From Candidatus Nanopelagicales bacterium (lineage in GTDB: Bacteria; Actinomycetota; Actinomycetes; S36-B12): DNA of 43,401 bases. The notes under the pieces were generated by a model that made no database searches, was not told the origin of the DNA, and saw only the letters and a list, made by a program, of their open reading frames with translations. Below, piece by piece: positions 2,999 to 43,270 of the stretch (position 1 is its first letter; every line of letters begins with the position of its first letter). The DNA lies in contig JBIIOS010000001.1 of the NCBI GenBank assembly GCA_044336805.1, positions 1-43,401 on the forward strand, in the 5' to 3' direction. A program made the translations under genes and the position numbers.

Positions 2999-5296
<2,298 letters not shown>

Positions 5297-7163: not shown

Positions 7164-7184
7164 GCTCCACCATAATGAGGGACC

Positions 7185-8067: not shown

Positions 8068-8112
8068 AGTGGGCCGAGTACTATTTCCCGGTGACTCGCT
8101 AACGTGTGTCCT

Positions 8113-11738: not shown

Positions 11739-11739
11739 T

Positions 11740-18131: not shown

Positions 18132-18163
18132 ACAGCAACAAATATTCGATCTGCTTGACTATT

Positions 18164-18193
18164 TGTCATACAGAAGGCAGTGTTCTCCATATT
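18164..18193 (+). promoter_or_regulatory. operator/promoter-like element TGTCATACAGAAGGCAGTGTTCTCCATATT upstream of the second hydroxylase
   Basis: The first 13 nt are identical to 33761-33773, and a CCATA(A/T)T -10-like hexamer region sits at the same offset within 1 nt. It lies in the only sizeable gap (18132-18222) between operons A and B. Confidence 0.5.
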
Positions 18194-18222
18194 CTGCAGC
18201 ACCCCCAAGATCAGGAGACGAG

Positions 18223-24417: not shown

Positions 24418-24481
24418 ACCTTTCAAGTTCACTGAACATCGGTGTACACGCATTAACCAATTAGTTGAAGGAGTCAAAGGT

Positions 24482-25543: not shown

Positions 25544-25570
25544 CCCAAGTTAGTTCAGCGTAGGTGTGGT

Positions 25571-25597
25571 GTGGTGGCGTCAATCCGACGTCACCAC
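25571..25597 (+). terminator. stem-loop after the ABC transporter genes (possible weak or attenuating terminator)
   Basis: GTGGTGGCGTC-AATCC-GACGTCACCAC gives an 11-bp stem with one G-U pair and a 5-nt loop. Only a short CGTTT tract follows, so this call is tentative. Confidence 0.4.
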
Positions 25598-25667
25598 ATC
25601 GCCGTTTGAGCGGCGTTATCGGTTCGATGCTCCGTAGTGTGAGCACAATCTGGCGAAGGAGTAACGC

Positions 25668-26705: not shown

Positions 26706-26719
26706 CGAGGAATAAATCT

Positions 26720-31112: not shown

Positions 31113-31607
31113 TCAGCGGTGTTGGTAGGTCTTGCCCTCTGGGTAGGTCACCAATTCGATGAATAGTCCCCACGGGGCACGGGTGTAGACAAAGCGCGCT
31201 CGCGGTCCTGATTCGTCGCCGGCGAAAGGGAGCGGTTCCCCCAAAATTTCGACCCCAGCATCCCGGAATTGATCTAGGGCCCCGTCCATGTCTTCAACAT
31301 AGAACGCCACATGGTGTCCCCCAGAATCCGATGTCCGCGGGAATTCCTCACGCTTGTCTGGAGCGTCGTATTCCAGAAGCTCAAGCAAGCTCCCCGCAAT
31401 TTCGATCAGTGCAATTCCATTGACCGCGGTCTCGGGATGCCGGGCAAAATTCTTCACATTTATTTCTGGATTCGGTATGTATGGTGGGTGGCGAACGAGC
31501 ACCCTTGCGCCAAAAATCCGAGTGAAGAATTCGATTGCCTCATTAAGGTTTGGGACCGTGATCCCGATATGGTCGATTCCCCGAATCCCCATCCGGTTTA
31601 CCGTCAC
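31113..31607 (-). CDS. VOC (glyoxalase/bleomycin-resistance/dioxygenase) family protein
   Basis: GIDHIGITVPNLNEAIEFF and HHVAFYVEDMD motifs. GTGA overlap with the upstream SDR. Confidence 0.8.
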   Translation of the reverse strand: MTVNRMGIRGIDHIGITVPNLNEAIEFFTRIFGARVLVRHPPYIPNPEINVKNFARHPETAVNGIALIEIAGSLLELLEYDAPDKREEFPRTSDSGGHHVAFYVEDMDGALDQFRDAGVEILGEPLPFAGDESGPRARFVYTRAPWGLFIELVTYPEGKTYQHR

Positions 31608-32353
31608 CAGGAAACCCGCCCCCCATTAACCGGCAACACCGTTGCGGTGACTTGACCAGAAGATTCACTTATCAAGAACTCGAGTGCCGAGACGAGATCA
31701 CTTGGTCGGGCCAGTGATTTGATGGCCTGGCGCTCCCGATACGCCTCGAGACTCTCGGTGCTCACCCGCTCTTCGATATCAGGAGTGAGCACAATCCCCG
31801 GAGCGATGCAGTTGACGGTGATGTTGTGAACACCCAGTTCGCTGGCGAGAGCACGCGTGAACCCAACGAGAGCGGCTTTGGAAGTGACGTATGCGCTCAT
31901 GTTCTTAACTTGCATGTCCCAAACAACGGTAGATGTCAGGTTGACTACGCGTCCAGCCCCGCTCGTGATGAGGTTATCGAGAAAAGCTTGTGTGAGAAGA
32001 AAGGCACTGTCCAGGTTAACCCGCATGACGCGGTGCCAATCGTCGATCGAGGTCTCTGAAAATGGCAAATAAGGTGAAATGCCAGCATTGTTTACGAGCA
32101 CCCGCACTGGCGGGAGTCGGTCCTGGACCACGTCACGAAATGCACTGACGTCGGCGGGATCCGCAGCATCACCAACAAATGAGATCCCCACGCCCCCATT
32201 GCGTTCAATCGCATCGAGGGTCATGTCACATTCGACTAGATCGAGCATCGCTATAGCGTGGCCGCTTGCCGCGAGTGCTTCAGCAAAGGTTCGACCAAGA
32301 CCTTGAGCCGCGCCGGTGACTACGGCGGTACCTCTAGTTATGTCGGACAACAT
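31604..32353 (-). CDS. SDR-family oxidoreductase
   Basis: AVVTGAAQGLG, NNAG and YVTSKAA. The ATG at 32353 overlaps the 3' end of the GntR gene by 20 nt. Confidence 0.85.
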   Translation of the reverse strand: MLSDITRGTAVVTGAAQGLGRTFAEALAASGHAIAMLDLVECDMTLDAIERNGGVGISFVGDAADPADVSAFRDVVQDRLPPVRVLVNNAGISPYLPFSETSIDDWHRVMRVNLDSAFLLTQAFLDNLITSGAGRVVNLTSTVVWDMQVKNMSAYVTSKAALVGFTRALASELGVHNITVNCIAPGIVLTPDIEERVSTESLEAYRERQAIKSLARPSDLVSALEFLISESSGQVTATVLPVNGGRVSW

Positions 32354-33125
32354 GAAACCTGATGTAGTGATCGTCAACGTGCACTTGCGAGAAGGCGACC
32401 GGTTCACCTTGAGCGGTGTAGTGCGTCTCTAGGAGCATGATGTAAGGCGTTCCCGGCGCCAGGTTCAAAGGGAAGTCTTCGGTATCAGGGACGACCACCG
32501 GCACAATTTCAACTACGACATGATCAATTGTTCGCCCTGGCCATGTTTGGCTAAAAGCAAAGATGGAATCATTGAAGTTGTATCCCTGACCGTCACCTAG
32601 GGCCTCTTGGGTTGCAGCTGAGACATATGAGAAGGGAATCTCGTCTTCGATGTGTAGGGCCACTTGCCCGTCGGCAAAAAAAGTCTTTGACGTCGTTACT
32701 ACTGGTGTGTCTTTGGTAAGTTTCAACGCTCGAGTCGCATCGGGTCCCGAGCTTTCCTCTCGGTGGTAATTGCCGACCACTTGTACATCTTTATAGGCAG
32801 CTTTCAGCATTGCTCTAAAACCAATGAGGCGCTGCAAGATGATGCTCTCGCGTCCGACGTGCGTACGAATTACCGTGCCACGACCCGGTGCGCGACTCAC
32901 CATGCCGAGGCGCTCTAACGACTGAAGTGCCGCACGCAATGTGGTTCGGCTGACATTCAGCATCTCTGCTAATTCGGGCTCAGAGGGAAGTCGGTCGCCG
33001 GGGAACCTGCGTTCCAAGATTGCATCTAGAAGCGCACTCGTCGTCTGGTCCGCGAGGGAGGCAGTCCTGATTCGCGGCAACACGAGATCCACCGGGGTGT
33101 CGCTCGCCTTGACTTTAGCGATCAT
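32334..33125 (-). CDS. GntR-family transcriptional regulator, HutC-like (UTRA effector domain)
   Basis: Winged HTH LPSEPELAEMLNVSRTTLRAALQSLERLGMVSRAPGRGT. The C-terminal domain of about 150 aa matches UTRA in length and pattern. Confidence 0.9.
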   Translation of the reverse strand: MIAKVKASDTPVDLVLPRIRTASLADQTTSALLDAILERRFPGDRLPSEPELAEMLNVSRTTLRAALQSLERLGMVSRAPGRGTVIRTHVGRESIILQRLIGFRAMLKAAYKDVQVVGNYHREESSGPDATRALKLTKDTPVVTTSKTFFADGQVALHIEDEIPFSYVSAATQEALGDGQGYNFNDSIFAFSQTWPGRTIDHVVVEIVPVVVPDTEDFPLNLAPGTPYIMLLETHYTAQGEPVAFSQVHVDDHYIRFHVVRHN

Positions 33126-33138
33126 TGGACTTCACTTT

Positions 33139-33732
33139 CTAAAATGGTCGCTTCACTCCTTCAGGGAGTGGAGTGTTGAACACACGGAGTGTGAGGTCAA
33201 GCGTCTGGTAGTAGCCCACCAGTACGACAAGTTCCACGAACCCATCGGATCCAAATACAGTATGACACTCTTCGGCGAGTAGCGGTGTGACATCGCGGTT
33301 CCTAACGAGGGAACGTGTCACTTGTAAGACCAGAGCTTCAGTCGTGTCGAGTCCCTGCGGTTCGTTCCCCAGACGAATCGCGTCGATGTCCGTGTCCGAG
33401 ATTCCGCAGGCCCGTGCAATAGGTGCGTGTGCGTACCACTCAAAATCGCTGGCAAGTTCGGCGGCGAGAGTGAGGATGGCAACCTCCCGAGCACGGTCGG
33501 TCAAAAGAGTGCGGTAACGGATTGCTGATCCAAGTTCTTGGAGTGGGCCTCCGATAGCAGGTGCGACCACCATGGCATTGAATGGACCTTCTAGGCGCCC
33601 ATTCGAGTCGGTTAACTGGAAGTGTTGCGGTCCCGCGGCCCGCGGCCCACCCGCGATGGAGTTGTAGACGGCGGTAGCATCTGATCCTAGCTCTGTCGGC
33701 GCCAACCATGGCAGATCACCGTGCTTGATCAT
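33139..33732 (-). CDS. carboxymuconolactone decarboxylase (CMD/AhpD-like) family protein
   Basis: 197 aa. REVAILTLAAELASDFEWYAHAPIA resembles the CMD-family helix pair. It is the first gene of the minus-strand regulator operon. Confidence 0.75.
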   Translation of the reverse strand: MIKHGDLPWLAPTELGSDATAVYNSIAGGPRAAGPQHFQLTDSNGRLEGPFNAMVVAPAIGGPLQELGSAIRYRTLLTDRAREVAILTLAAELASDFEWYAHAPIARACGISDTDIDAIRLGNEPQGLDTTEALVLQVTRSLVRNRDVTPLLAEECHTVFGSDGFVELVVLVGYYQTLDLTLRVFNTPLPEGVKRPF

Positions 33733-33760
33733 CGTCCTCCGCTCAATAGTTGCTTTATTC

Positions 33761-33790
33761 TGTCATACAGAAGACAATTCTGCCATAATG
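33761..33790 (+). promoter_or_regulatory. operator/promoter-like element TGTCATACAGAAGACAATTCTGCCATAATG in the divergent region between the CMD-GntR operon and the Rieske dioxygenase operon
   Basis: The 13-mer is identical to 18164-18176. CATAAT at 33784-33789 lies about 35 nt upstream of the preferred GTG start at 33824. Confidence 0.5.
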
Positions 33791-33823
33791 TCGTGCGAAC
33801 TACGTAAAGAAGTGGAGACAAAC

Positions 33824-35146
33824 GTGATTGAGCCTGACGGGCCCGTTTCCGTTCTGCGTAGGACGTGGGGCGACGAAGAAGTCTTTGCCCGTGAGTTGGA
33901 GCGCGTTTTTAAACACTCGTGGCAGTTCCTCGCCCACGATAGTGAGATCCCTGAGCCAGGCGATTACGTGCAGCGCCGGATGGGCCGCGACCGTGTGATT
34001 GTTGTGCGTAGTGAAGATGGTGTCATTCGAGTCTTTCTAAATACCTGTCGGCACAGAGGTGTGCCCTTATGTCGCGCGGATGAAGGGAATACCTCGCATT
34101 TTAGGTGCAGCTACCATGGGTGGACCTACGCAAACACCGGGGTACTTCGGGGAGTGACGTACCAACCTGATGTGTATGGCCCTGATGGAATCGACAAATC
34201 CGAATTAGAGCTTTTCTCGCCCGCACACGTCGACACGTTTCTCGGCATGATATTCGCAACGTGGGATCAAGACGCTGTTCCTCTTCGCGAGTACTTGGGC
34301 GATCTGACCTGGTATCTGGAAGCAATCATGGGTAAATTTGACGATGGACTTGAAGTGGTCGGAACTCCTGTCCGCAATATTGTGAAAGCAAACTGGAAGA
34401 CCGAAGGTGAGAACCTTTCCGGAGACGGTTACCACACGATGGTCACACACGCCACAGCCGTTGAACTGGGACTTTTTGCCACACCCAAGGATCTAGAGAA
34501 ACTCACCGATGTGGTGACGCCGCGCTTTACCGGGCGCACGGTCGATTGCGGCAATGGCCACACCATTCGGGTTCAGCGTCTTCCAGTGGAGATTGACAGT
34601 AATCAGTATTGGGGATACCCCGAAGAGATGTGGGAGCAGTTTGACCGCAACCTCAGTCCGGGGCAGCAACAGGTCATGTCTGCGTTGTCTGTATGTCACG
34701 GGTCCGTATTCCCGAATATGTCTTTCATTGAGAATTTCAAGACAAATGTCGACGGCCCGGGCCTTCATGCCCGCTACTTTCGGATTACTGTTCGATATCC
34801 AATCTCTGCAACACATTGTGAACAATTATGGTTCTTGCTACAACCACGCAATGCGGATCAAAAGTGGCGGCGATTATCGGCACAAGCATATTTGAGAACG
34901 AATGGTCCTTCAGGTATGTTCGAAATTGATGACACTGAAAATTTTGTAGGTATTTCTGAAGCTTCTGTTGGCGAAATTGCTCGTGATAAGCCAATCACCT
35001 ACCTTGGTGGTTTGCAGAATCCAAAGACTCCAAGCGAAGTTGGCTGGCCTGGAGATTCCGTCGATGGCGACAAGACGGAGAAGACACTTCGTGCGTTCCA
35101 CAGACAATGGGCTGTGATGATGGGCGAAAACGAGGTTGTCTCGTGA
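33824..35146 (+). CDS. Rieske non-haem iron ring-hydroxylating dioxygenase, alpha subunit
   Basis: Rieske motif CRH-X17-CSYH (nt 34046-34117) and mononuclear iron motif DGYHTMVTH. GTG at 33824 follows GTGGAG; ATG at 33788 is an alternative start. Confidence 0.9.
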   Translation: MIEPDGPVSVLRRTWGDEEVFARELERVFKHSWQFLAHDSEIPEPGDYVQRRMGRDRVIVVRSEDGVIRVFLNTCRHRGVPLCRADEGNTSHFRCSYHGWTYANTGVLRGVTYQPDVYGPDGIDKSELELFSPAHVDTFLGMIFATWDQDAVPLREYLGDLTWYLEAIMGKFDDGLEVVGTPVRNIVKANWKTEGENLSGDGYHTMVTHATAVELGLFATPKDLEKLTDVVTPRFTGRTVDCGNGHTIRVQRLPVEIDSNQYWGYPEEMWEQFDRNLSPGQQQVMSALSVCHGSVFPNMSFIENFKTNVDGPGLHARYFRITVRYPISATHCEQLWFLLQPRNADQKWRRLSAQAYLRTNGPSGMFEIDDTENFVGISEASVGEIARDKPITYLGGLQNPKTPSEVGWPGDSVDGDKTEKTLRAFHRQWAVMMGENEVVS

Positions 35147-35700
35147 CTTCGAATTTTGCGCCACCTTTCGCGGAAATTTCCCAGGTGTGGGCTTCGCCCG
35201 AAGAGCATGCTGCTGTGGCTGCTTTTCTCGCACACGAGGCTGAGGCCATTGATTCACGTGATTTTGCAACGTGGCTCTCTTTGGTCGATGACGAATTCAC
35301 GTATCAGGTACCGGTTCCCCGAACGCCCGATAACCCCTTCTCACCACACTTCGATTCGCGTTCAATGTTAATTGATGAATCTAAGTGGTCTCTTGAGTCG
35401 CAATGGTTTCGTCGTCTTGATCTTGACCTTTACGAATTGTCTTGGGCGGAGAACCCACCGGTTAGATTTCGCCATTTCGTGAGCAATATCCGGGTCCGTC
35501 GAACCGATGATCCGAAAGTCCTCGATGTACGCAGTAATGTGATGCTTGTCGGTACGCGCCAATCTGATGCTCCTAAGTTCCTTACGGGTGAACGAACTGA
35601 TGCCATAAGTGTGGTGGCCGATGGTTACCGACTGTCCCGACGTTGGGTCGTTCTTGACCAAGTTGTGATTGATTTCCCCCAGCTTCGGATCATGTTGTGA
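35143..35700 (+). CDS. ring-hydroxylating dioxygenase beta subunit (SnoaL/NTF2-like)
   Basis: FLAHEAEAIDSRDFATWLSLV...RFRHFVSNIRV is typical of RHO small subunits. GTGA overlap with alpha. Confidence 0.85.
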   Translation: MTSNFAPPFAEISQVWASPEEHAAVAAFLAHEAEAIDSRDFATWLSLVDDEFTYQVPVPRTPDNPFSPHFDSRSMLIDESKWSLESQWFRRLDLDLYELSWAENPPVRFRHFVSNIRVRRTDDPKVLDVRSNVMLVGTRQSDAPKFLTGERTDAISVVADGYRLSRRWVVLDQVVIDFPQLRIML

Positions 35701-35951
35701 ACGAGAACAATGTGAACAATTCTGGGGTTACCGAGGACACAGTGCGGATAATCATCTCGAATGAATTCGCATCCGTAGAGGTCCGCAAGGTAGCAACCCG
35801 AAACGGAGAGCGGTTGCAGATCCGTTCCATGGGGAAGCAGTCCACTGTTCGCCTTGATGCAATAGCACTCGAGGCATTGACGTGGTCAGACGCAATTGAA
35901 GTTGGGATGGCTCTGGAAAATCCGCTAGGACCTGAAACAGGTGCGTCATGA
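35697..35951 (+). CDS. hypothetical 84-aa protein, translationally coupled to the dioxygenase beta subunit
   Basis: GTGA overlap upstream and ATGA overlap downstream. No motif I can assign, no Cys, and a soluble-looking sequence. Confidence 0.5.
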   Translation: MNENNVNNSGVTEDTVRIIISNEFASVEVRKVATRNGERLQIRSMGKQSTVRLDAIALEALTWSDAIEVGMALENPLGPETGAS

Positions 35952-36424
35952 CACCACTCGTTGTTGGCAGACCTTGTGGAGGTGGGCTTGAGGCACTCGT
36001 GGCGCTTTCGCAGGTCGTGCCTGGAGAAGTCACCCTCGTGTGGAGCGATCGTGAGGAACTCGTTGCAGCTGTCCCGCAAGTTCTCGAGGTTGGCGGAACT
36101 ACGCTTTTGGTCGATGCACAAGATGAAGCCGCTACCTCGCACGCGCTAGCTCACCAATTACAAGTAATGGGAACCCCTCAGTTTGTATGCCTGGTCGCCG
36201 AAGACCCTCGAGATGCCGAGGATCTTGGCATCATCGCGAAGACTTTGCTGAGAACGGTGCCACTATGTGCCGTCCTTGTGGTCGGTGACGAACATACGAC
36301 AATGGTTGTGAGTCAGATACTAGATGAACTTGAACTGCCGGCACCATTGTCAGTGGGTCTTGAAGAGGCAATTACGGCTGCAGGGGAACTTGCCTTATTC
36401 GCACGATGGGAGACGTCTTCATGA
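35948..36424 (+). CDS. hypothetical 158-aa protein (alternating beta/alpha pattern, Rossmann- or flavodoxin-like by eye)
   Basis: ATGA overlaps at both ends. Acidic and soluble-looking. No recognisable cofactor motif. Confidence 0.55.
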   Translation: MTPLVVGRPCGGGLEALVALSQVVPGEVTLVWSDREELVAAVPQVLEVGGTTLLVDAQDEAATSHALAHQLQVMGTPQFVCLVAEDPRDAEDLGIIAKTLLRTVPLCAVLVVGDEHTTMVVSQILDELELPAPLSVGLEEAITAAGELALFARWETSS

Positions 36425-37446
36425 CGACCAAGTACAACAAGGGTGATGCTCGCAGTTGGGCTTTGGAATCTTTGACCGGTTGCTGCGGCTGCATTCAGCC
36501 GACCTTTACTTCTTCACTCGAGTCGCTGAATGAGGAAGCTATTCGCTTTGATGTTCGTCGTGAAATCGAGTTGGGCATGTCCGGCGTTTTGATCGTCTCA
36601 GAGTGTGGGACGACACCGGCCGAATTCGCGGAATTCACCCGCATCGTAATTGATGAGGCGGGCGACCAATTGGTGACTGTTTTGCAGGCTTCAGAACCAA
36701 CGCTGCAGAGTACGGTCGCAGCGGCAGTAATGGGTGCAGAAGCAGGAGTAGACCTCGTCATGCCTTCATATCCCCTGTATTTCAATCCGACGTCGCATGA
36801 TGACGTATTCGGTTTCACAAAGCGCATCGCGGACGAATCCGGTATCGGCATGATCGTTTTCGCCATGGACCAGTGGAACTTTGGTCGGTTGCACGCCGCG
36901 GGCTTCCCTATGTTCCTTCTCGAGCAGATGGTGGACGAGATTCCGCAGGTTGTAGCGATCAAAAATGAGGTCGGAGGCCCTGGCGTTGGCGGCATAGCGG
37001 CAGTTTTTGAGCGGTTCAATGAGGAAGTTGTGGTGACCGACCCACTCGAATTTAACGCGCCAGCTTGGATTGCTAATTACGGCATGCGTTTCATGGGAAC
37101 CTCAAACTATGAATGGATGGGGCCTGTAGTCCCCAAGATGCTCGCCCTTCTCAGTGACCCTGCGACGTGGAATGAGGGAATGGATCTGTACTGGCGTGTC
37201 GCCCCTGCTCGTCGGGCGCACTCAACGGTGTGCACGCCTTTGGTTGCAAATAGCGGGCTTGTTCCACGAATGCATTGGAAATATCAGGGGTGGCTAAACG
37301 GTTTCAATGGGGGACCAATTAGGCAGCCGCACATGCGAATCAGTGCGGCACAGATGGCGATCTTGCGTAATGCGGCCGTAGCTTCAGGACTCGATGTGAC
37401 CGGCGATGACGACGCGCTCTTCTACAGTGGAAGGAATCCCGAATGA
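36421..37446 (+). CDS. DHDPS/N-acetylneuraminate-lyase (class I aldolase) family protein
   Basis: Schiff-base Lys context QVVAIKNEVGG and Tyr context MPSYPLYFNP. The usual GTTGE motif is replaced by SECGTT. Confidence 0.8.
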   Translation: MTTKYNKGDARSWALESLTGCCGCIQPTFTSSLESLNEEAIRFDVRREIELGMSGVLIVSECGTTPAEFAEFTRIVIDEAGDQLVTVLQASEPTLQSTVAAAVMGAEAGVDLVMPSYPLYFNPTSHDDVFGFTKRIADESGIGMIVFAMDQWNFGRLHAAGFPMFLLEQMVDEIPQVVAIKNEVGGPGVGGIAAVFERFNEEVVVTDPLEFNAPAWIANYGMRFMGTSNYEWMGPVVPKMLALLSDPATWNEGMDLYWRVAPARRAHSTVCTPLVANSGLVPRMHWKYQGWLNGFNGGPIRQPHMRISAAQMAILRNAAVASGLDVTGDDDALFYSGRNPE

Positions 37447-38417
37447 GTGAATACGGCTCAATGCTCCTAGTAAACGGTGACGAAGTTGATCGTCTTGCTA
37501 CGGTCCCTGTGGCTTTGGCTGCGGCAGAGGAAGCTGCACTTCTTCTGACTCGTGGCAACATCGTGACTGGGCGCGTACAGGTGAATGGCCCGGTTGCCTG
37601 GATGCGAGTACTCGCCGGAATGGTGACAGATCTTGATCTTCTCGGGTACAAAGAGTTTCACCGTGTCGGGCAAGATGTTCGTTATCACGTTCACCTATAT
37701 CGTGAATCTACGGGAGAGATCCTCGGCGTCGTTGATGGACGACGCATCACAAGTCTTCGCACGGCAGCAACCGCGGCGGTCGCTATTCGCCATTGGGCTA
37801 ACAGCCGCCCGATCCGTGTGGGCTTGATTGGATCTGGCGAGGAAGCTCGTGAGGGTTTGCGAGCGATTGCAGGCTCCGTGGACGTTTCATCTGCATCGGT
37901 CTTTAGTCCAACGGCTGCGAACCGCGAGGCATTCGCCGAGGAGATGTCCGACGAACTCGGCATCCAAGTTGTTGCACGGTCAACCCAAGATGACGTAGTG
38001 GCTGAATGCGATGTGCTCTATGTGGCGACCTCATCCCACAACCAGCCGTTTCTGACGGCAGGTCAAGTAGGCAATGTAGGGATGATTGCTGCAATTGGAT
38101 CGACGCAGCCGGTTCACCGCGAGCTCTTCGGAGATGTCTTCCTGGCTGCAACTCAGACAATTGTCGATACACCTGATGCCACTCACGAGTCCGGTGATTG
38201 CATCGAGGCCACGGCACTAGGTTGGGATCCTTCGTCAGCGATACTGCTGGGTCGTTATCTCGCAGAGGAACCGGCGGCTAGCGGACTAACAATTTTTAAG
38301 TCAGTGGGGAGTGTGGAGCAGGATCTCGTCCTTGCTTACTACCTCGTTGAAGCTGCCCGTACAAACCATGCTGGCGCCGTCGTTCCCGACGTCGCTTCCC
38401 TCCGAGTAATGCGCTAA
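37443..38417 (+). CDS. ornithine cyclodeaminase / mu-crystallin family protein (NAD-dependent; cyclodeaminase or imine reductase)
   Basis: SLRTAATAAVAIRH, GLIGSGEEA (Rossmann) and IAAIGS. ATGA overlap with the upstream gene. Confidence 0.85.
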   Translation: MSEYGSMLLVNGDEVDRLATVPVALAAAEEAALLLTRGNIVTGRVQVNGPVAWMRVLAGMVTDLDLLGYKEFHRVGQDVRYHVHLYRESTGEILGVVDGRRITSLRTAATAAVAIRHWANSRPIRVGLIGSGEEAREGLRAIAGSVDVSSASVFSPTAANREAFAEEMSDELGIQVVARSTQDDVVAECDVLYVATSSHNQPFLTAGQVGNVGMIAAIGSTQPVHRELFGDVFLAATQTIVDTPDATHESGDCIEATALGWDPSSAILLGRYLAEEPAASGLTIFKSVGSVEQDLVLAYYLVEAARTNHAGAVVPDVASLRVMR

Positions 38418-38435
38418 GAGAAAAAGGAGTTAGTT

Positions 38436-39284
38436 ATGCAGATTGTTGACCTGTCCCACAATTGGGGAATGCACACGCCAGGTTGGGTCGGCTACCCAGG
38501 ATGCAAGATTTATTACACGCAGACACTTCAAACAAACCGAATCGTGTCACAGCGAATTGAAACTTCTCTGCACACAGGGACGCACCTTGATGGACCGATC
38601 CATGCTGCTGACGGCGGCGCTGACATGGCTTCGCTACCTTTGACCAAACTTATTCACGAGGGCGTTGTTGTCGATTTGTCTGATGTTCTCAGCGACTGGG
38701 ATGTCATCACACCAGAACACATTCTGTCCAAGGTGGAGGTTAAGAAGGGCGACATCATCATTGTGCACACTGGTTGGCACAAGTACTACACCGGTCAGCC
38801 ACAGCAGGATCTTGTGCGATATTTCTGTATGCACCCAGGCGGTGGAATTGAATTAGCTCGCTGGATGATGGATATGGAGATCGCCTGGTGGGGCATTGAC
38901 GCAGGTAGCGGTGACCACCCGATGAACACCACTATTCGACATATGCGCCCCGATATCGCTAAGCGCTTTGAAGAGCATGTCGGCATGACATGCTTTGAAT
39001 ACTTCGGTGAATATGAGTATGTGCACCATCTCTCTGGGAGGGTAATCAAAGAGGACTTATTCCCCATGCACCACCTCGCCTTCCCTGCCGGATGCATTCA
39101 CGCAGAAAATGTCGGCGGAGACATCGAGGCGGTCTTGAACAAACGCTGCATCATTGGAGCATTCCCCTGGAAAATTGAAGGTGGAGAAGGGTGTCCTTGT
39201 CGGATCATGGCGTTCTTCGACGTAGGTTCAAATGACGTCGTCGATGCAGTGGCCGATGGAATTTTCACCCTACCGAAGGGGTGA
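38436..39284 (+). CDS. cyclase-family metal hydrolase (kynurenine formamidase / isatin hydrolase-like)
   Basis: HTGTHLDGPIH (the HxGTHxDxPxH motif). AAGGAG lies 8 nt before the ATG. Confidence 0.85.
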   Translation: MQIVDLSHNWGMHTPGWVGYPGCKIYYTQTLQTNRIVSQRIETSLHTGTHLDGPIHAADGGADMASLPLTKLIHEGVVVDLSDVLSDWDVITPEHILSKVEVKKGDIIIVHTGWHKYYTGQPQQDLVRYFCMHPGGGIELARWMMDMEIAWWGIDAGSGDHPMNTTIRHMRPDIAKRFEEHVGMTCFEYFGEYEYVHHLSGRVIKEDLFPMHHLAFPAGCIHAENVGGDIEAVLNKRCIIGAFPWKIEGGEGCPCRIMAFFDVGSNDVVDAVADGIFTLPKG

Positions 39285-39294
39285 CGTTCGCACT

Positions 39295-40182
39295 GTGGAA
39301 TTTCCGTTTCGGGTAGCAATGGTCCAGATGCGCTCAGCGCCTCTGGAGCCATTGGCGAACGCCGTGACGACCAGTGCTGCCATTACACGTTGCGCGCAAG
39401 AGGGTTCAACGCTCGTTGTTCTGCCAGAACTTGCCGCTACGGGCTACATCCCAGATCGCGGGGCTCTTGAACCTCTTGCCGAATCGGTGGCTGATCCAGG
39501 CCCTGTGTTATCTGCATGGGTGGAAGCCGCGAGGACGCAACAGGTGGCTGTCATCGGCGGGTTCGCTGAGCGTGAAGGAGACAACCTCTACAACTCCGCG
39601 GTGACGATTGATGCCACCGGGCGGATCATTTCAATTTACCGGAAACTTCATTTGTTTGGCCGCGAGCGAGAATGCTTTGAGCCGGGTGATCTCGGATTGC
39701 CCATCGCTAACGTTTCGGGTGTTGAAGTGGGTGTGCTGGTCTGTTACGACCTTCGCTTTCCAGAGGCGATGAGGATTATGGCTCTTCGGGGCGCAGAAGT
39801 CATCGCGGTTCCTACGGCTTGGGTTTCGGGATTTGATAAGAGGGTCCCGGCGACGGGGAGAATCGGACAAATTGATGGCGTGGTTGTTCAGGCAAATCTG
39901 AATCAAGTTTTTGTTGTGTGTGCTGACACGGTTGGTGTTGTTTCGGACCTTGCCTTTTTAGGCAGGTCGGTCGCGGTAAACCCGTTCGGGGAAATCATCG
40001 CTGGGCCGCTCTCACCCGATCAAGAAGAGTGTACGATCGTGGACGTTGATGTAGCTGAAGTTTCTGCAGCGCGCCATCGCGGTCTTGGCATTGACCCATT
40101 TGCCAACAGGAGAATCGATGTATACGGCGCGGAATTGGGGTATCAGTACGTGTCGCCCCGTGAAAAGAAGGAGAAATCATGA
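39295..40182 (+). CDS. carbon-nitrogen hydrolase (nitrilase superfamily) amidase
   Basis: E-K-C triad contexts VLPELAATGY, YRKLHLFG and VLVCYDLRFPE. The start is uncertain (GTG 39295 preferred; ATG 39232 would overlap the cyclase gene by 53 nt). Confidence 0.8.
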   Translation: MEFPFRVAMVQMRSAPLEPLANAVTTSAAITRCAQEGSTLVVLPELAATGYIPDRGALEPLAESVADPGPVLSAWVEAARTQQVAVIGGFAEREGDNLYNSAVTIDATGRIISIYRKLHLFGRERECFEPGDLGLPIANVSGVEVGVLVCYDLRFPEAMRIMALRGAEVIAVPTAWVSGFDKRVPATGRIGQIDGVVVQANLNQVFVVCADTVGVVSDLAFLGRSVAVNPFGEIIAGPLSPDQEECTIVDVDVAEVSAARHRGLGIDPFANRRIDVYGAELGYQYVSPREKKEKS

Positions 40183-41096
40183 CGCCTACAGCGATAACAC
40201 ACGTTCGCTATGTAGCACTGGGAGTTCGTGATCTGGCTGCACAGGTGGAGTTTTACAAGGACGTATGGGGCCTCAGCCCACGAGAGAGTGACACTGGATT
40301 GCAGTATTTTGGTGCCCCTGCCACCCAGGATCCGCACATACTTCGGTTACGTGCTTCCGAATTTGATCGGGTTGATCTCATTTCATTTGCAGTTCCATCT
40401 GCGAAGCATGTGGATTCTTTGGCAGCAAAGTTGCGCGGTAGCGGCGTGAGATTGATCAGCGAGCCGGGTAGTTCTTCAGCGCCGGGTGGCGGATACGAAT
40501 TCCGATTCTTTGATCACGAAGGCCGCACCATTGAGATCAAGTCTGACGTTGAGAATGTGTCGGCCATTGAATTGCAGGAACGAGACTGGCACCCCGGGAA
40601 ACTGTCACATGTAGTAGTCAACTCTCCCGATATCGAAGCAGCAGCACGTTGGTACGGAGAGCATCTGGGATTGCAAGTATCGGATCGACTGGCTGACAGA
40701 ATGATATTCCTTCGAGGTGACAACAACGTTCATCACACGATGGCCTTTGCGGTTGCGCCACACGTCTCGCTAAACCATGTGGCATATGAATCGAGAGGCA
40801 TCGATGAGTACTTGAGGGCATCTGGCCGACTTATTAGATCGGGGCTGCCATGTGTGTGGGGACCAGGACGTCATGGCCCAGGAGACAACACGTTCGCCTA
40901 CTTCAGTGATCAATCAGGTTTCGTTGCCGAATACACCACCGCTCTTCAGGTTGTTGATGACTGGGAAACATGGAAGCCGCGGGTTCACCCGGTGACCCCC
41001 GAATGGTCTGATCAGTGGGGTACCGCAAACATTCGCGACCCAGAGCCTTTTTTGGGGCGCCCAGACCTTGGAGTGCATGACGCACCACCTATTTAG
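40179..41096 (+). CDS. type I two-domain extradiol ring-cleavage dioxygenase (catechol 2,3-dioxygenase-like VOC)
   Basis: ITHVRYVALGVRDL..., LSHVVVNSPD, LNHVAYE and GPGRHGPGDNTFAYFSDQSGFVAEY, with His/His/Glu ligand contexts. ATGA overlap with the upstream gene. Confidence 0.85.
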   Translation: MTPTAITHVRYVALGVRDLAAQVEFYKDVWGLSPRESDTGLQYFGAPATQDPHILRLRASEFDRVDLISFAVPSAKHVDSLAAKLRGSGVRLISEPGSSSAPGGGYEFRFFDHEGRTIEIKSDVENVSAIELQERDWHPGKLSHVVVNSPDIEAAARWYGEHLGLQVSDRLADRMIFLRGDNNVHHTMAFAVAPHVSLNHVAYESRGIDEYLRASGRLIRSGLPCVWGPGRHGPGDNTFAYFSDQSGFVAEYTTALQVVDDWETWKPRVHPVTPEWSDQWGTANIRDPEPFLGRPDLGVHDAPPI

Positions 41097-41155
41097 CCGT
41101 CTAGCCATCCAGCCATCCAGCACAGACATTCCATTTCTACATTTAGAGAGGTGCC

Positions 41156-41350
41156 ATGAAAGTTGAAATTGATACAAAGCTATGCAAGGCGTATGCAAAC
41201 TGCACTTTTGAAGCACCAGAAATCTTTGAAGTCGATGATGCCACCGGCAAAGCGCATGTCTTAGACGACGGATCATTGGAAAATCGTCGCGACGAAGTTG
41301 AACGCGCTGTCGACGGTTGCCCTGTAGGCGCAATTAGAATTACTGAGTAG
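41156..41350 (+). CDS. small 3-Cys ferredoxin ([3Fe-4S]-type motif CxxYxxC...CP)
   Basis: 64 aa with Cys10, Cys16 and Cys55-Pro, and a CPVGAIRI ending. RBS AGAGAGG. Confidence 0.85.
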   Translation: MKVEIDTKLCKAYANCTFEAPEIFEVDDATGKAHVLDDGSLENRRDEVERAVDGCPVGAIRITE

Positions 41351-42314
41351 CGAGCGCAACATCTACAAGAAGTTTGCCTGTCGATGCTCGCGATTCAAGT
41401 CGCTCGTGCTGGCGGGCAACATCCGACAGGGGCACGTGACTGTCGATATGAATGCGAAGTCGGCCGTCTTCGAGTCGATCCATAACCTCATTGGCGGCTA
41501 CATTCCACGACTTGGCATCGCCGATATAGTCCTTACCTCGCACCCGCCGAACGGCCAACGAGCCAGCCGACAGGAGTTCAAGATCAATGGTGGGCAAAGG
41601 CCCCGCCGCGGTACCGAAGTACACAACGGTGCCGTGTGCCTTGAGCATCTTGAGATCACGGAGTGCTTGAACGCCGCCGTTGGCATCAAAAACGAGGTTA
41701 ACGCCCTCCGGTGCAATCGCTCGAAGATCTTCAATAAGTTGGTCGGAATCGACGATTGCAGCAGTGGCTCCAAGTGCGAGTGGAATGGACGTCTTTGCCT
41801 GGCTGCCCACGATGGCAACAATGCGCGCCCCACGCTCTGCCAGCATCTGGGTGAGCAAGTGTCCGACGCCGCCGGCCGCGGCAAAGACGACCGCACTATC
41901 TCCCACGTGTACGGGAGCACATTGATATGCGAGATACCACGCCGTCGTGCCTTGCATGAGTCCGGCAGCAGCAGTTTCGCTCGTCACCGATTTTGGAATC
42001 GGTACAAAAAATTTCGCTGGCCCCTGTACTTGTTCGGCGTAACTACCGTTAATTTTCGACCAGGCTACGCGGTCACCGTAGGTGAAGTTGGAAACATCGG
42101 TAGCCATCGCGATTACGGAACCCGCTCCTTCTACACCCGGAATTCGGTTTGCCGGCAGTGGCACAAGACCTTTGCGCTGCATGATGTCCCAGTAGTTCAC
42201 GCCCACCGTCTCAACGGCAACCCGGATCTCGCCGGGCATCAGTTCGGGCAACTCGGCTTCACTCAATGCCAAAACTTCCGGTCCACCCGGCTGAGTAACG
42301 ACCACACACTTCAT
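41340..42314 (-). CDS. MDR-family NADPH:quinone oxidoreductase / zeta-crystallin-like
   Basis: MKCVVVTQPGGPEVLAL start and AAAGGVGHLL nucleotide motif. I prefer the ATG at 42314 over 42356. Its 3' end overlaps the ferredoxin gene by 11 nt in convergent orientation. Confidence 0.85.
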   Translation of the reverse strand: MKCVVVTQPGGPEVLALSEAELPELMPGEIRVAVETVGVNYWDIMQRKGLVPLPANRIPGVEGAGSVIAMATDVSNFTYGDRVAWSKINGSYAEQVQGPAKFFVPIPKSVTSETAAAGLMQGTTAWYLAYQCAPVHVGDSAVVFAAAGGVGHLLTQMLAERGARIVAIVGSQAKTSIPLALGATAAIVDSDQLIEDLRAIAPEGVNLVFDANGGVQALRDLKMLKAHGTVVYFGTAAGPLPTIDLELLSAGSLAVRRVRGKDYIGDAKSWNVAANEVMDRLEDGRLRIHIDSHVPLSDVARQHERLESRASTGKLLVDVALATQ

Positions 42315-42328
42315 CTGGGTAGTTTGCC

Positions 42329-43270
42329 ATGGTGAGCCGGATTCCTTCCGTCGCACTGGTCGCAGCGGCCGGTGGGACGATAATTCAGGCTCGTCTCAAT
42401 GCGCAGTTGGTGGAAATAACAAGAAACCCATTGGAAGTTTCACTAATCAATCTCACCGTGGCGGCTGTAGTTGCTAGCTTGGTGATCCTGGTTGCACCCA
42501 CTCTTCGCGCTTCCTGGTGGGTGCTCCTGCGGGCGATCAAGTCAGGAGAACTACGACCTTGGCAACTCACTGGTGGAGCGCTAGGCGGTTATTACATTGC
42601 AATACAAGGAAGCGCCTCTCTTGCCGTAGGCGTTGCTGTCTTCACCATTGCGGTCGTCGCGGGACAAACTGGTACGGCACTCCTAGTTGACCGCCTTGGA
42701 ATCGGCCCTATGGGCCGCAAAGATATTTCTGCCGCTCGGATTGCTGCCGCATTGCTTGCTGTGTTAGCAGTTGCTACGGCGGCTTCTGGGCGGATCGGTC
42801 GAGCTGATATCAGTGCCTTCGCCATTATTGGAGTTCTTAGTCTCGCGGCGTCGGCCGGCGCTGCGAGCGCTTTTCAACAGGCAGTGAGCGGGAGAGTCGG
42901 GGCGGTCACCCGACACGGCATTACTGCAGCATGGCTGAACTTTGTCGTGGGCGCCGGAATCATGGCGGGCGTCGTTGCTATGGTCAATGTGGCGCGGGGC
43001 CCCGCGTGGGCACCGATCCCGACGGATCACTGGTGGATGGTAATTGCTGGAGTTTTCGGACTCATCTACATCGCGACGGTAACTTGGGTTGTTCGAACTG
43101 TTGGGGTGCTGGTGACGTCACTACTTACATTGGTGGGCTTGTTAGTCGGCTCCGTCATTTCGGATGTTGTTGCCCCGACAACGGGGTCGGTCATCACGTG
43201 GCAGTTGATCGTTGGCCTTGTTTTAACCTGGTTTGCCGTCATGCTTGCCTCGAAAACCTCACACAGGTAG
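42329..43270 (+). CDS. DMT-superfamily membrane protein, duplicated YdcZ/DUF606-like
   Basis: About 10 TM helices in two similar halves, each starting with a GG..IQ/QQA..(N/G) pattern like YdcZ proteins. The family call is from memory. Confidence 0.65.
   Translation: MVSRIPSVALVAAAGGTIIQARLNAQLVEITRNPLEVSLINLTVAAVVASLVILVAPTLRASWWVLLRAIKSGELRPWQLTGGALGGYYIAIQGSASLAVGVAVFTIAVVAGQTGTALLVDRLGIGPMGRKDISAARIAAALLAVLAVATAASGRIGRADISAFAIIGVLSLAASAGAASAFQQAVSGRVGAVTRHGITAAWLNFVVGAGIMAGVVAMVNVARGPAWAPIPTDHWWMVIAGVFGLIYIATVTWVVRTVGVLVTSLLTLVGLLVGSVISDVVAPTTGSVITWQLIVGLVLTWFAVMLASKTSHR

Follow-up and report, generated by a model that had tools for sequence, protein, structure and literature searches.

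A ten-gene Rieske oxygenase operon from a Candidatus Nanopelagicales bacterium, possibly the centre of a regulon for the catabolism of a nitrogen-containing aromatic compound

N-heterocyclic rings can be opened hydrolytically by cyclase-family enzymes, with a nitrilase-family amidase acting next, as in the breakdown of 2-hydroxypyridine and of nicotine (PMC6214936, PMC9304392, PMC6117287). The hpo pathway follows this logic with a dioxygenase, a dehydrogenase, a cyclase-family hydrolase and an amidase (PMC6214936; bioRxiv 10.1101/2020.01.08.898148), while in other bacteria 2,5-dihydroxypyridine and trihydroxypyridine are opened oxidatively (PMC9304392, PMC3831237). How, then, does an operon that carries a Rieske oxygenase, an extradiol dioxygenase, a cyclase-family hydrolase and a nitrilase-superfamily hydrolase compare with these systems? 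Such an operon is found within the 43,401-nt stretch of DNA analysed here, referred to as the window.

The operon consists of ten co-directional genes on the plus strand (33788-41350), in the order alpha, beta, ORF84, ORF158, DHDPS-like, OCD-like, cyclase, CN hydrolase, extradiol dioxygenase and ferredoxin. This is the order given in a preliminary description of the locus; all of the ORFs are present and the Pfam assignments match the families named there. Gene starts follow homologues and the calls made for identical metagenome contigs, and the catalytic motifs of the operon products are intact. The nine junctions measure, in order, -4, -4, -4, -4, -4, +18, +34, -4 and +59 nt, such that a recount returns exactly the six 4-nt overlaps previously reported, with 59 nt as the widest gap. 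No terminator-like sites were found in the three intergenic gaps, and the operon region as a whole holds fewer than expected (7 against 11.5 from shuffled sequence). The overlaps and the terminator-free gaps support the earlier view of a single, tightly coupled operon. The operon is not self-sufficient: the gene for its cis-diol dehydrogenase is 7 kb away on the upstream side (26720-27472). Neither a ferredoxin reductase nor an SSADH-like aldehyde dehydrogenase was found within the window.

The alpha subunit (33788-35146, plus strand; 452 aa; PF00355 and PF00848) carries the motifs CRH..CSYH and ENLSGDGYHTMVTH, and has an alternative GTG start at 33824, preceded by GGAG 6 nt upstream, which was the start chosen previously. 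Its best solved relatives are the Rhodococcus naphthalene dioxygenase 2b1x (2e-90) and the phthalate 3,4-dioxygenase 9jp5 (1e-80). The gene overlaps by GTGA with that for the beta subunit (35143-35700, plus strand; 185 aa; PF00866, 90 bits), which is followed by ORF84 (35697-35951, plus strand), a small oxygenase-associated protein with no Pfam or NCBIfam match. ORF84 is kept 3' of beta in every related cluster, including those around alpha relatives of only 50-53% identity, and 56 plasmids carry homologues of 35-53% identity; in both of the two plasmids examined, the Arthrobacter keyseri pRE1 pht operon and a Rhodococcus rhodochrous plasmid, the homologue lies directly 3' of beta. ORF84 is therefore not peculiar to this operon, but is the small ORF found 3' of beta in oxygenase operons of the phthalate and naphthalene types in Gram-positive bacteria. 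An AF2 model of ORF84 (pLDDT 78) gave no significant match in a fold search. The last gene of the operon encodes a 64-aa ferredoxin of the 3Fe-4S type (41156-41350, plus strand; Fer4_13/Fer4_15) with three cysteines, at positions 10, 16 and 55. The pRE1 phthalate operon shares this oxygenase layout, its alpha subunit being 38%, its small ORF 43.5% and its 64-aa ferredoxin 35% identical. By sequence and layout, alpha, beta, ORF84 and the three-cysteine ferredoxin are thus assigned to a phthalate-operon-like Rieske oxygenase module.

ORF158 (35948-36424, plus strand) is a lineage-restricted orphan, again with no Pfam or NCBIfam match. It is limited to a Nanopelagicales-like subset of the clusters, at 24-72% identity, has only 13 representatives among 1.84 billion proteins, and is modelled, with low confidence, as Rossmann-like. 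Both ORF84 and ORF158 are nonetheless real coding genes, because substitutions in comparison with a relative concentrate at third codon positions (11/7/38 and 29/24/85 at positions 1/2/3, respectively).

The DHDPS-like protein (36421-37446, plus strand) is a divergent member of the DHDPS/NAL superfamily of class I aldolase-like enzymes, matching PF00701 on the borderline (22.2 bits; cut-off 22.1). Its Schiff-base Lys181, within AIK, and Tyr117 are invariant in nine homologues, and it is 73-83% identical to its counterparts in related clusters. Among solved structures only sialate lyase and DapA are related to it (E 4e-4 to 2e-3), and there is no specific similarity to NahE or PhdJ, so the hydratase-aldolase of that type first suggested is not borne out. 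The OCD-like gene (37443-38417, plus strand; PF02423, 98 bits), which always adjoins it, encodes an OCD/mu-crystallin-family NAD(P) enzyme with a GSGEEA motif, closest among solved structures to the delta1-pyrroline-2-carboxylate reductase 6t3e (8e-18). The extradiol dioxygenase (40179-41096, plus strand; PF00903 in two stretches) is a two-domain VOC protein whose best solved relative is 3b59 (2e-66), a structure with no assigned function. The DHDPS-like/OCD pair, usually together with an extradiol dioxygenase and an SSADH-like aldehyde dehydrogenase, forms a separate module that is also found without any Rieske oxygenase. For instance, Streptomyces and Corynebacterium have all four genes, the dioxygenase being 45-47% identical, and Variovorax and Roseomonas have the pair and the aldehyde dehydrogenase. 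In Corynebacterium and Roseomonas the surroundings include a flavin hydroxylase/oxidoreductase and a VOC dioxygenase.

The cyclase-family metal hydrolase (38436-39284, plus strand; PF04199, 108 bits) belongs to a distinct and highly conserved subfamily with the motif HTGTHLDGPIH; among the best 80 of 586 matching genome stretches, identity is 70-98%. The adjacent nitrilase-superfamily C-N hydrolase, an amidase (39319-40182, plus strand; PF00795, 184 bits), has the cysteine motif CYD and adjoins the cyclase in most genomic contexts. Archaeal Nit proteins (3ivz, 1.4e-40) match it better than does Nit2, a solved protein of the omega-amidase type (2w1v, 2.9e-13). This cyclase subfamily stands almost always beside a CN hydrolase and a CMD protein, the last two being fused in locus L100, and often beside Mo hydroxylases, with a quinone reductase also accompanying the pair. 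For one of these Mo hydroxylases the closest match is KDH of the nicotine pathway (7dqx, 5.6e-172).

The genes around the operon extend this picture. Mo hydroxylases act on N-heteroaromatic rings or on aldehydes, and a CoxM/S/L-type Mo-hydroxylase operon (18161-28245, plus strand) lies upstream. It opens with the hydroxylase genes (to 21913), and continues with an ABC transporter (21906-25543), an ADI/DDAH-like protein (25668-26705), an HcaB/BphB-type cis-dihydrodiol dehydrogenase of the SDR family (26720-27472) and a second SDR (27397-28245). Most related loci have counterparts of this Mo hydroxylase (60-70% identity) and of the diol dehydrogenase (47-70%) alongside the oxygenase cluster. Before them, at 11728-18131 on the plus strand, are a second Mo hydroxylase, made up of a small subunit and a 1146-aa fused large/FAD subunit, an aldehyde dehydrogenase and an Amidohydro_2 decarboxylase-type protein (15610-16569); these genes, homologues of which adjoin the oxygenase cluster in L076 (Trebonia) and L038 (Dormibacterota), are probably part of one catabolic island with the operon. 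On the minus strand are a CMD/AhpD-family gene (33139-33732; PF02627, weak match), conserved beside alpha or the cyclase in most contexts, and a divergent operon (31113-33125) that encodes a GntR/UTRA regulator (32334-33125), an SDR (31604-32407) and a single-domain glyoxalase (31113-31607), assigned by Pfam on identical contigs and conserved in L012, L015-L017, L031 and L086. A quinone oxidoreductase gene (41340-42356; TIGR02824, 187 bits; MDR, PIG3 type) converges on the operon from the minus strand, and lies 3' of the cyclase and CMD genes in nicotine-cluster-like loci.

The CMD and alpha genes diverge from a 55-nt promoter region that contains a candidate palindromic operator, TTCTGTCATACAGAA (33758-33772). 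The operator core, TCTGT-N3-ACAGA, occupies the corresponding position in L008, L012, L013, L016, L019 and L029, and also precedes the Mo-hydroxylase operons of L008 and L013 (Actinoallomurus and an Actinomycetales MAG); the background is four matches in 1.23 Mb of unrelated loci. In the window, the operator-like ATTTGTCATACAGAA stands at the start of the Mo-hydroxylase operon (18161-18175). Because of the common palindrome and the cis-diol dehydrogenase in the second operon, the two operons look like one GntR regulon.

The window itself is similar to freshwater 'Ca. Nanopelagicales' MAGs. The gene set of the operon is shared by about 15 Actinomycetota genomes and a single Dormibacterota MAG. 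Its order is the same, at 47-83% protein identity, in Actinoallomurus, Thermomonospora, Nocardia, Georgenia, Trebonia and Jatrophihabitantaceae; in the Dormibacterota MAG the order is changed, and a shuffled set is still present near alpha relatives of no more than 50-53% identity. An SSADH-like aldehyde dehydrogenase is part of the cluster in most relatives. Comparative genomics resolves the operon into three modules: the oxygenase, the DHDPS-like/OCD set, and the cyclase with the CN hydrolase. These can function apart, because the Georgenia cluster has no dioxygenase, the window has no aldehyde dehydrogenase or reductase of the kinds noted above, and in L101 the surroundings of the oxygenase include no DHDPS/OCD pair and no cyclase.

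What substrate might such a combination serve? A nitrogen-containing aromatic, as first proposed, is the most reasonable reading, given the two C-N hydrolases and the operator common with the Mo-hydroxylase operon. That operator, seen in distant genomes as well as here, also supports the suggestion that hydroxylated products of the upstream operon feed this one. Tentatively, and at somewhat less than an even chance, the operon is placed at the centre of one GntR-controlled regulon whose likeliest substrate would be an azaarene or azaarene carboxylate with the ring nitrogen first flanked by a carbonyl; it may be bicyclic, as originally suggested. A benzo-fused or carboxylated pyridine, such as a quinoline- or isoquinoline-type compound, a kynurenate-like acid or a pyridine dicarboxylate, would use every component.

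The steps are all inferred from gene content, motifs, synteny and the operator. Following uptake by the ABC transporter, the CoxMSL-type enzyme would hydroxylate beside the ring nitrogen. The Rieske oxygenase, comprising alpha, beta, the ORF84 partner and the 3Fe-4S ferredoxin, with a reductase presumably encoded elsewhere in the genome, would then cis-dihydroxylate the ring, and the HcaB/BphB-type dehydrogenase would re-aromatise it. Extradiol cleavage of the resulting diol may yield a 2-oxo-acid ring-fission product for Schiff-base chemistry by the DHDPS-like enzyme, either aldol-type cleavage or a related reaction, with the OCD-like enzyme acting on a cyclic imine or enone and, in most relatives, the SSADH-like dehydrogenase next. 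No standard aromatic pathway explains a role for the OCD-like enzyme, a point against the azaarene reading. Finally, the cyclase would hydrolytically open the remaining lactam, hydroxypyridone or cyclic imide and the amidase would hydrolyse the resulting amide to release ammonia, the CMD protein and quinone reductase being putative helpers. Also against this reading, the cyclase substrate is assigned from family and neighbours alone, the CN hydrolase is nearer to archaeal Nit proteins than to Nit2, and the modules can function apart.

A monocyclic pyridine of the 2-hydroxypyridine type is an unlikely alternative, though one with the logic of the known hpo pathway (PMC6214936; bioRxiv 10.1101/2020.01.08.898148). 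Here the Mo hydroxylase would produce a 2-pyridone, for instance from nicotinate, picolinate or pyridine, the oxygenase and diol dehydrogenase would give trihydroxypyridine, possibly with carboxyl loss, the cyclase would open that ring by hydrolysis, and the CN hydrolase would generate ammonia and 2-oxoglutarate. The dioxygenase-free Georgenia cluster and the nicotine-cluster-like loci, where cyclase, CN hydrolase, CMD and quinone reductase occur without a dioxygenase, agree with this. However, it relegates the dioxygenase and the DHDPS-like and OCD-like enzymes to a side branch or a second substrate, leaving no role for the two most conserved non-oxygenase genes, the dioxygenase or the aldehyde dehydrogenase, and the cyclase is not an HpoH orthologue.

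It is improbable that the dioxygenase instead opens a dihydroxy- or trihydroxypyridine, with the cyclase as an N-formyl deformylase akin to kynurenine formamidase and the CN hydrolase as an amidase on a maleamate-like amide. The three genes are consecutive, oxidative opening of such rings has precedent (PMC9304392, PMC3831237), and the cyclase family includes arylformamidases, with a weak match to TIGR03035 (3.8e-9); yet the score for the arylformamidase model, 36.8, falls far short of its cut-off of 223. Furthermore, the cyclase (at least 70% identity) and CN hydrolase occur in many loci without any dioxygenase, which in other taxa co-varies with the DHDPS-like, OCD and aldehyde dehydrogenase genes and not with the cyclase.

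Just as doubtful is a carbocyclic aromatic amide or amine (anthranilate-, kynurenine- or phthalamate-like), where oxygenase, diol dehydrogenase, dioxygenase and aldolase would perform ordinary meta-cleavage, the two hydrolases and OCD-like enzyme would only remove the nitrogen substituent and the Mo-hydroxylase link would be incidental. Among NCBIfam models the dioxygenase comes closest to homoprotocatechuate dioxygenase, the DHDPS-like/OCD/aldehyde dehydrogenase module adjoins phenol-type flavin hydroxylases, and the naphthalene and phthalate substrates of alpha's closest solved relatives are carbocyclic, which also weighs against an azaarene; the common operator and repeated adjacency, however, tie the cluster to Mo hydroxylases. 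An evolutionary mosaic of three independent modules with different substrates, joined by gene shuffling, is very improbable: each module does occur alone elsewhere, but translational coupling crosses the module borders (ORF158/DHDPS-like and CN hydrolase/dioxygenase) and the combination is retained between different classes and phyla, even in shuffled order.

In the literature no published cluster with high-identity synteny to the operon was found, in keeping with the original statement that the combination was not recognised as a described pathway. The 2-hydroxypyridine hpo cluster of Rhodococcus rhodochrous PY11 is the nearest published candidate, and was rejected as a counterpart as its cyclase HpoH, which opens trihydroxypyridine, is only 21% identical to the cyclase of the operon.

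The operon consists of ten plus-strand genes (33788-41350) that encode, in the order given in the preliminary description, the Rieske oxygenase alpha and beta subunits, ORF84 (35697..35951), ORF158 (35948..36424), a DHDPS-like protein, an OCD-like protein, a cyclase-family hydrolase, a CN hydrolase, a two-domain extradiol dioxygenase (40179..41096) and a ferredoxin. With gene starts that are supported by homologues the nine junctions measure -4, -4, -4, -4, -4, +18, +34, -4 and +59 nt, and thus include the six 4-nt overlaps reported earlier. Eight of the ten family assignments are borne out by Pfam and NCBIfam, with ORF84 and ORF158 having no match in either. Shine-Dalgarno-like sequences are found upstream of most of the genes, and the Rieske, iron-site, cyclase metal, nitrilase cysteine and OCD dinucleotide motifs are all intact, as is the Schiff-base lysine of the DHDPS-like protein. 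Terminator-like sites are absent from the gaps within the operon and are not enriched across it, and a split of the operon by internal terminators is rejected on the evidence of these gaps. The substitutions that separate ORF84 and ORF158 from those of one relative are biased to the third codon position, from which it follows that both are translated genes. Long antisense ORFs also lie opposite conserved genes, at 35690-36142 (minus strand), 36495-37019 (minus strand) and 41406-42335 (plus strand); these are probably not genes, since the substitution pattern matches the plus-strand frames of ORF84, ORF158 and the DHDPS-like gene.

Freshwater 'Ca. Nanopelagicales' MAGs provide the closest genomes, with protein identities of 92-98%, and lake metagenome contigs carry identical cyclase genes together with the same ten genes. 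The base composition of the region has no island-like break, for which reason a recently acquired island is rejected. For the alpha subunit the database contains about 60 clusters with an identity of at least 61%, and when all window proteins were mapped onto 94 loci, fetched around named homologues, the same cluster was found in Actinoallomurus, Thermomonospora, Nocardia, Georgenia, Trebonia, Jatrophihabitantaceae and several MAGs, and also, with changed gene order, in a MAG of the Dormibacterota. In these relatives the dioxygenase gene is usually followed by genes for an SSADH-like aldehyde dehydrogenase (ALDH) and a ferredoxin reductase, neither of which is encoded anywhere in the window, and sometimes by one for a CoA-transferase. 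ORF158 occurs in the Nanopelagicales-like subset alone, a search of 1.84 billion proteins giving 13 representatives, and a model made from its single sequence (pLDDT 63) gave only generic Rossmann matches; by these searches it is an orphan. Two MAG records titled 'Bifidobacterium breve' (L015 and L023) hold a Nanopelagicales-like cluster at 75-98% identity and look like mislabelled bins.

Within the 55-nt intergenic region that separates alpha from the divergent gene for a CMD-family protein (33139..33732, minus strand) there is a perfect palindrome, TTCTGTCATACAGAA (33758-33772). The gene for a GntR/UTRA regulator (32334-33125, minus strand) adjoins it, and the palindrome is probably the operator of this regulator. 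Its core, TCTGT-N3-ACAGA, occupies the corresponding position in six distant relatives, and Actinoallomurus and an Actinomycetales MAG have it upstream of CoxM as well, in the adjoining Mo-hydroxylase operon. The window has a second copy, with one mismatch, at 18161-18175, at the start of its Mo-hydroxylase operon, and those two relatives similarly have the palindrome before both the oxygenase and Mo-hydroxylase operons (L008, at 1172 and 9909; L013, at 4590 and 9945), against a background of 4 matches in 1.23 Mb of unrelated loci. The two operons thus probably form a single regulon.

The Mo-hydroxylase operon (18161 to 28245, plus strand) encodes a CoxMSL-type hydroxylase, an ABC transporter, an ADI/DDAH-like protein, a cis-dihydrodiol dehydrogenase of the HcaB/BphB type and a second SDR. 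Most relatives have this hydroxylase and this cis-dihydrodiol dehydrogenase together with their oxygenase cluster, and the co-occurrence, with the palindrome before both operons, supports the earlier guess that the upstream hydroxylase operon feeds the oxygenase operon. The gene content shows where the diol dehydrogenase that is missing from the ten-gene operon would come from, namely from the Mo-hydroxylase operon. The ADI/DDAH-superfamily protein (25668-26705) has a homologue in none of the other related loci and is therefore a lineage-specific addition to this hydroxylase and transporter operon. A second Mo hydroxylase, together with an Amidohydro_2 decarboxylase-type protein, is encoded at 11728-16569, and homologues of the two lie beside the cluster in Trebonia and the Dormibacterota. 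Here the large subunit is fused to the FAD-binding (medium) subunit in a single 1146-aa protein (12204-15644); a 2Fe-2S small subunit and an amidase are encoded before it, the Amidohydro_2 protein and an ALDH after it. Ahead of the hydroxylase genes, at 6612-10189, a MobA/MocA-like gene, CoxG, a MoxR-type AAA ATPase and a 415-aa ORF (read by eye only) look like a maturation set for Mo hydroxylases, while the left end of the window (2073-5296) has a LysR-type regulator divergent from a catalase-peroxidase (KatG-like) gene, unrelated to the operon.

What, then, might such a collection of enzymes degrade? The reading that we prefer, which we hold to be plausible though just short of probable, is that the regulon encodes a catabolic route for a nitrogen heteroaromatic compound, and we infer all of its chemical steps as follows. 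The Mo enzyme would catalyse a hydroxylation adjoining the ring nitrogen, after which the Rieske oxygenase and the diol dehydrogenase would bring about cis-dihydroxylation and re-aromatisation, and the dioxygenase would subject the diol to extradiol cleavage. The 2-oxo-acid product would then pass to the Schiff-base DHDPS-like enzyme, the OCD-like NAD(P) enzyme and, in the relatives, the ALDH; the cyclase-family enzyme would open the remaining lactam or hydroxypyridone ring hydrolytically; and the CN hydrolase would hydrolyse an amide with the release of ammonia. A benzo-fused or carboxylated pyridine as substrate would give every part a use, the second Mo hydroxylase and the Amidohydro_2 protein among them. 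The weakest point of the scheme is the role of the OCD-like enzyme. The finding itself is confirmed and the preliminary description of it was accurate. The interpretation offered there is partly sustained: the idea of a feeding hydroxylase is supported, but the NahE/PhdJ type invoked for the aldolase is not.

The cyclase (282 aa; PF04199 at 108 bits, with the metal motif HTGTHLDGPIH at residue 46) belongs to a subfamily of extraordinary conservation: of 586 matching genome stretches, the best 80 are 70-98% identical. In other lineages it is found with a CN hydrolase, a CMD-family protein and a quinone reductase, adjoining Mo hydroxylases; other contexts are a bare trio of CMD, CN hydrolase and cyclase genes, or the company of CoxS/CoxM and an SDR. 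The window has the CMD gene next to alpha, in divergent orientation, and the quinone reductase gene (41340..42356, minus strand) next to that of the ferredoxin, in convergent orientation. In loci of Nocardioides and Mycolicibacterium the window-type cyclase has a KDH-like Mo hydroxylase beside it, the enzyme of the Nocardioides-type loci being most similar to the nicotine-pathway KDH (7dqx, 5.6e-172). The CN hydrolase (PF00795 at 184 bits, with a CYD motif) has archaeal Nit as its closest solved proteins (1.4e-40), with Nit2 at only 2.9e-13. In L100, a distant relative of the cluster, a CN hydrolase and a CMD-family protein are fused into one 405-aa product (17611-18828), which suggests that the two may act on successive intermediates. 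That the cyclase is a kynurenine formamidase is rejected, its score of 36.8 bits against the TIGR03035 (KynB) equivalog being far under the cut-off of 223.

Cyclase and CN hydrolase partnerships are also found in pyridine catabolism, and it is there that the closest described system lies. In the hpo pathway for 2-hydroxypyridine in R. rhodochrous PY11, as outlined in PMC6214936 and PMC9304392, a dioxygenase and a dehydrogenase generate 2,3,6-trihydroxypyridine, ring opening by the cyclase-family enzyme (HpoH, PKC) then gives 2-oxoglutaramate, from which a nitrilase-family amidase forms 2-oxoglutarate and ammonia; the same outlines give the lower nicotine pathway of pAO1 the same logic, with the PKC cyclase and the NIT omega-amidase (PMC6214936, PMC9304392), and PKC a reported 77% similarity to HpoH (PMC6214936). 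On paper the likeness takes in a multicomponent dioxygenase, a dehydrogenase, a PF04199 hydrolase that opens the N-ring and a nitrilase-family amidase that releases ammonia, and a monocyclic hpo-like route is the first alternative to be weighed, albeit an unlikely one. The sequence of HpoH (RrHpoH, 320 aa), recovered from the supplementary alignment of PMC6117287, is only 21% identical to the window cyclase (E 0.005), which therefore represents a different subfamily, and the operon is not the published hpo cluster. By analogy of family and neighbours, rather than by orthology, the window cyclase may nonetheless work like HpoH. An extradiol dioxygenase, a DHDPS-like gene and an OCD-like gene go unmentioned for hpo in the consulted papers that cite that work; a database search with a Nocardia cyclase returned no match named HpoH; and Rhodococcus PY11 has no entry among the best 120 alpha matches or among the 120 listed of 127 ORF84 matches. 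In Streptomyces the module of DHDPS-like, OCD, ALDH and dioxygenase genes has an HpoH-like cyclase (47.5% identical) at a distance of 3 kb, so that this module meets cyclases of two subfamilies. The operon of that cyclase in Streptomyces sp. NBC_00841 (L098, 9784-13811, minus strand), which also encodes a family III CoA-transferase, an enoyl-CoA hydratase and a 3-hydroxyacyl-CoA dehydrogenase, is divergent from the module.

Outside the oxygenase, the best conserved part of the cluster is the DHDPS-like/OCD-like pair (73-83% and 58-73% identity, respectively). The DHDPS-like protein scores 22.2 with the Pfam DHDPS model, for a cut-off of 22.1; Lys181, within an AIK motif, aligns with the DapA lysine, and both Tyr117 and Lys181 are invariant in 9 homologues. 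Among solved proteins it matches only sialate lyases and one DapA at E<=0.01 (4e-4 to 2e-3), and it is equally remote from all solved members of the family. NahE/PhdJ gave no match in this search of solved relatives, and the proposed aldolase of that type is rejected for lack of specific similarity, even though the catalytic Lys and Tyr are kept. The OCD-like protein (PF02423 at 98 bits, with a GSGEEA dinucleotide-binding motif) has delta1-pyrroline-2-carboxylate reductase as its best solved relative, and is assigned no specific function because all NCBIfam equivalogs fall far below their cut-offs. The pair is found with an SSADH-like ALDH, and without any Rieske oxygenase, in Streptomyces sp. 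NBC_00841, Corynebacterium occultum pCOCCU, Variovorax and Roseomonas. In the Streptomyces and Corynebacterium the adjoining dioxygenase is 45-47% identical to that of the window, and in the Corynebacterium and Roseomonas a flavin hydroxylase or oxidoreductase and a VOC dioxygenase are also nearby. The window dioxygenase, with PF00903 in two stretches, is predicted to belong to the type I two-domain extradiol (VOC) family, matching 3b59 (function unknown) at 2e-66 and homoprotocatechuate dioxygenase at 1e-10. It is also the enzyme that would open the N-ring in a maleamate-type route, an alternative we regard as improbable.

The alpha subunit contains the Rieske CxH...CxxH motif CRHRGVPLCRADEGNTSHFRCSYH at residue 87 (PF00355 at 1.2e-18) and the mononuclear-iron His-His motif ENLSGDGYHTMVTH at residue 208, with the catalytic domain PF00848. 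Its partners in the operon are the beta subunit (PF00866) and a ferredoxin with three cysteines, the pattern of 3Fe-4S ferredoxins; a reductase for the oxygenase is found in related clusters, though none within the window. Alpha, beta and ORF84 are kept together even around alpha relatives of only 50-53% identity, and the best solved relatives of alpha are a Rhodococcus naphthalene dioxygenase and then a phthalate 3,4-dioxygenase. ORF84 is the small ORF of pht-type oxygenase operons, and is thereby ruled out as a novelty of this operon: homologues of 35-53% identity occur on 56 plasmids, and in both plasmids examined, Arthrobacter keyseri pRE1 with its phthalate operon and an R. rhodochrous plasmid, the homologue directly follows the beta gene. 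The family is widespread after Gram-positive oxygenase beta genes (L102, which is A. keyseri pRE1, at 5902-6240; plasmid matches H86 and H87), and its members, of about 80-110 aa, are sometimes misleadingly annotated as 'dihydrodiol dehydrogenase' while having no dehydrogenase fold; a fold search with ORF84 returned weak PUR/Whirly-like matches only (E>=0.04).

The pht operon of pRE1, one of the phthalate 3,4-dioxygenase operons of Gram-positive bacteria to which the nar/nid-type oxygenases are related, shares with the window alpha, beta, the small conserved ORF and a 64-aa three-cysteine ferredoxin, identities being 38% for alpha, 43.5% for the small ORF and 35% for the ferredoxin. In pRE1 the ferredoxin and the reductase come after the ORF84 homologue; this glutathione-reductase-type reductase is part of the pht layout, whereas on the side of the window it is found only in the relatives. 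Unlike pht operons, the window has neither a pht-type decarboxylase nor an IclR regulator, and its oxygenase is set among C-N hydrolases and linked to Mo hydroxylases. With identity below 40% it is a clade separate from pht, and from the conserved position of ORF84, the alpha identity and the solved relatives the oxygenase is, as far as such comparisons go, a new clade that shares the pht/nar layout of Gram-positive bacteria. That the substrate is a carbocyclic amide or amine, for which the naphthalene and phthalate dioxygenase relatives might be adduced and to which the linked Mo hydroxylases may be opposed, has in our estimation little likelihood. That the genes form a mosaic serving no single pathway is hardly credible: although each module is met alone elsewhere, the combination recurs in distant genera.

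In the naphthalene/PAH upper pathways (NahA-F/PhdJ), oxygenase, diol dehydrogenase, extradiol dioxygenase, pyruvate-class aldolase and aldehyde dehydrogenase form an established enzyme logic, to which our preferred heteroaromatic scheme bears a likeness; however, the aldolase-like protein of the window differs in sequence from NahE/PhdJ, the isomerase is absent and the OCD-like partner is obligate. The hydroxyproline pathway brings together the same three protein families as the DHDPS-like/OCD-like/ALDH trio, as a DHDPS-family pyrroline-4-hydroxy-2-carboxylate deaminase, an OCD-family pyrroline-2-carboxylate reductase and a 2-oxoglutarate semialdehyde dehydrogenase. Here the similarity is remote, the trio goes with ring-cleaving dioxygenases and, unlike in the hydroxyproline pathway, proline epimerase and dehydrogenase are absent beside it.

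A literature search found no relevant gene clusters for the degradation of kynurenate or quinoline, and no paper describing the OCD/DHDPS/extradiol combination. The operon is a widely conserved variant of known aromatic and N-heterocycle catabolic clusters, built from recognisable modules. It does not constitute a new category, and what gives it value is that it offers a well-defined, testable candidate for an azaarene pathway that is still without genes. Nitrogen heterocycles are common, both natural and man-made, and include vitamin and cofactor fragments, the dipicolinate of spores, quinoline acids derived from tryptophan and the azaarenes of coal tar, and to our knowledge several bacterial routes for their degradation exist only as metabolite lists from the 1960s to the 1980s. 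Since the cluster occurs widely among soil Actinomycetota and is also found in Nanopelagicales-like bacteria that are abundant in freshwater, and has cultured carriers, a recognisable candidate regulator site and an enzyme set matching no described pathway, it provides a concrete and testable entry to such a gene-less route, as well as a way into the function of the recurrent DHDPS-like/OCD-like pair and the very conserved cyclase subfamily. If an ordinary pyridine carboxylate proved to be the substrate, what is already known of pyridine catabolism would still be extended, though only incrementally.

The classical azaarene pathways, defined by their metabolites, include those of quinoline via 5,6-dihydroxy-2-quinolinone (Rhodococcus), kynurenate via the 7,8-diol and the aerobic oxidation of dipicolinate. 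They need a Mo hydroxylase and/or a dioxygenase, a diol dehydrogenase, extradiol cleavage, side-chain removal and a decarboxylase, and they release 2-oxoglutarate or glutamate together with ammonia. We know of no sequence attached to them, so sequence comparison with the window is impossible and the likeness is one of enzyme inventory. Horibata 1961, which appears among the references of PMC11354673, belongs to this literature. That the regulon is one of these gene-less pathways together with two new enzyme functions, those of the DapA-like/OCD-like pair and of a new PF04199 subfamily, is a doubtful proposition, for which the candidates would be the aerobic oxidation of dipicolinate or quinolinate, the '7,8-diol' route of kynurenate and the 5,6-dihydroxy-2-quinolinone route of quinoline. 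The pair would then dismantle a nitrogen-containing ring-fission product or dihydro-ring, and the new PF04199 subfamily would open a hydroxypyridone or cyclic imide hydrolytically. The enzyme inventory that these classical pathways require is just that of the window.
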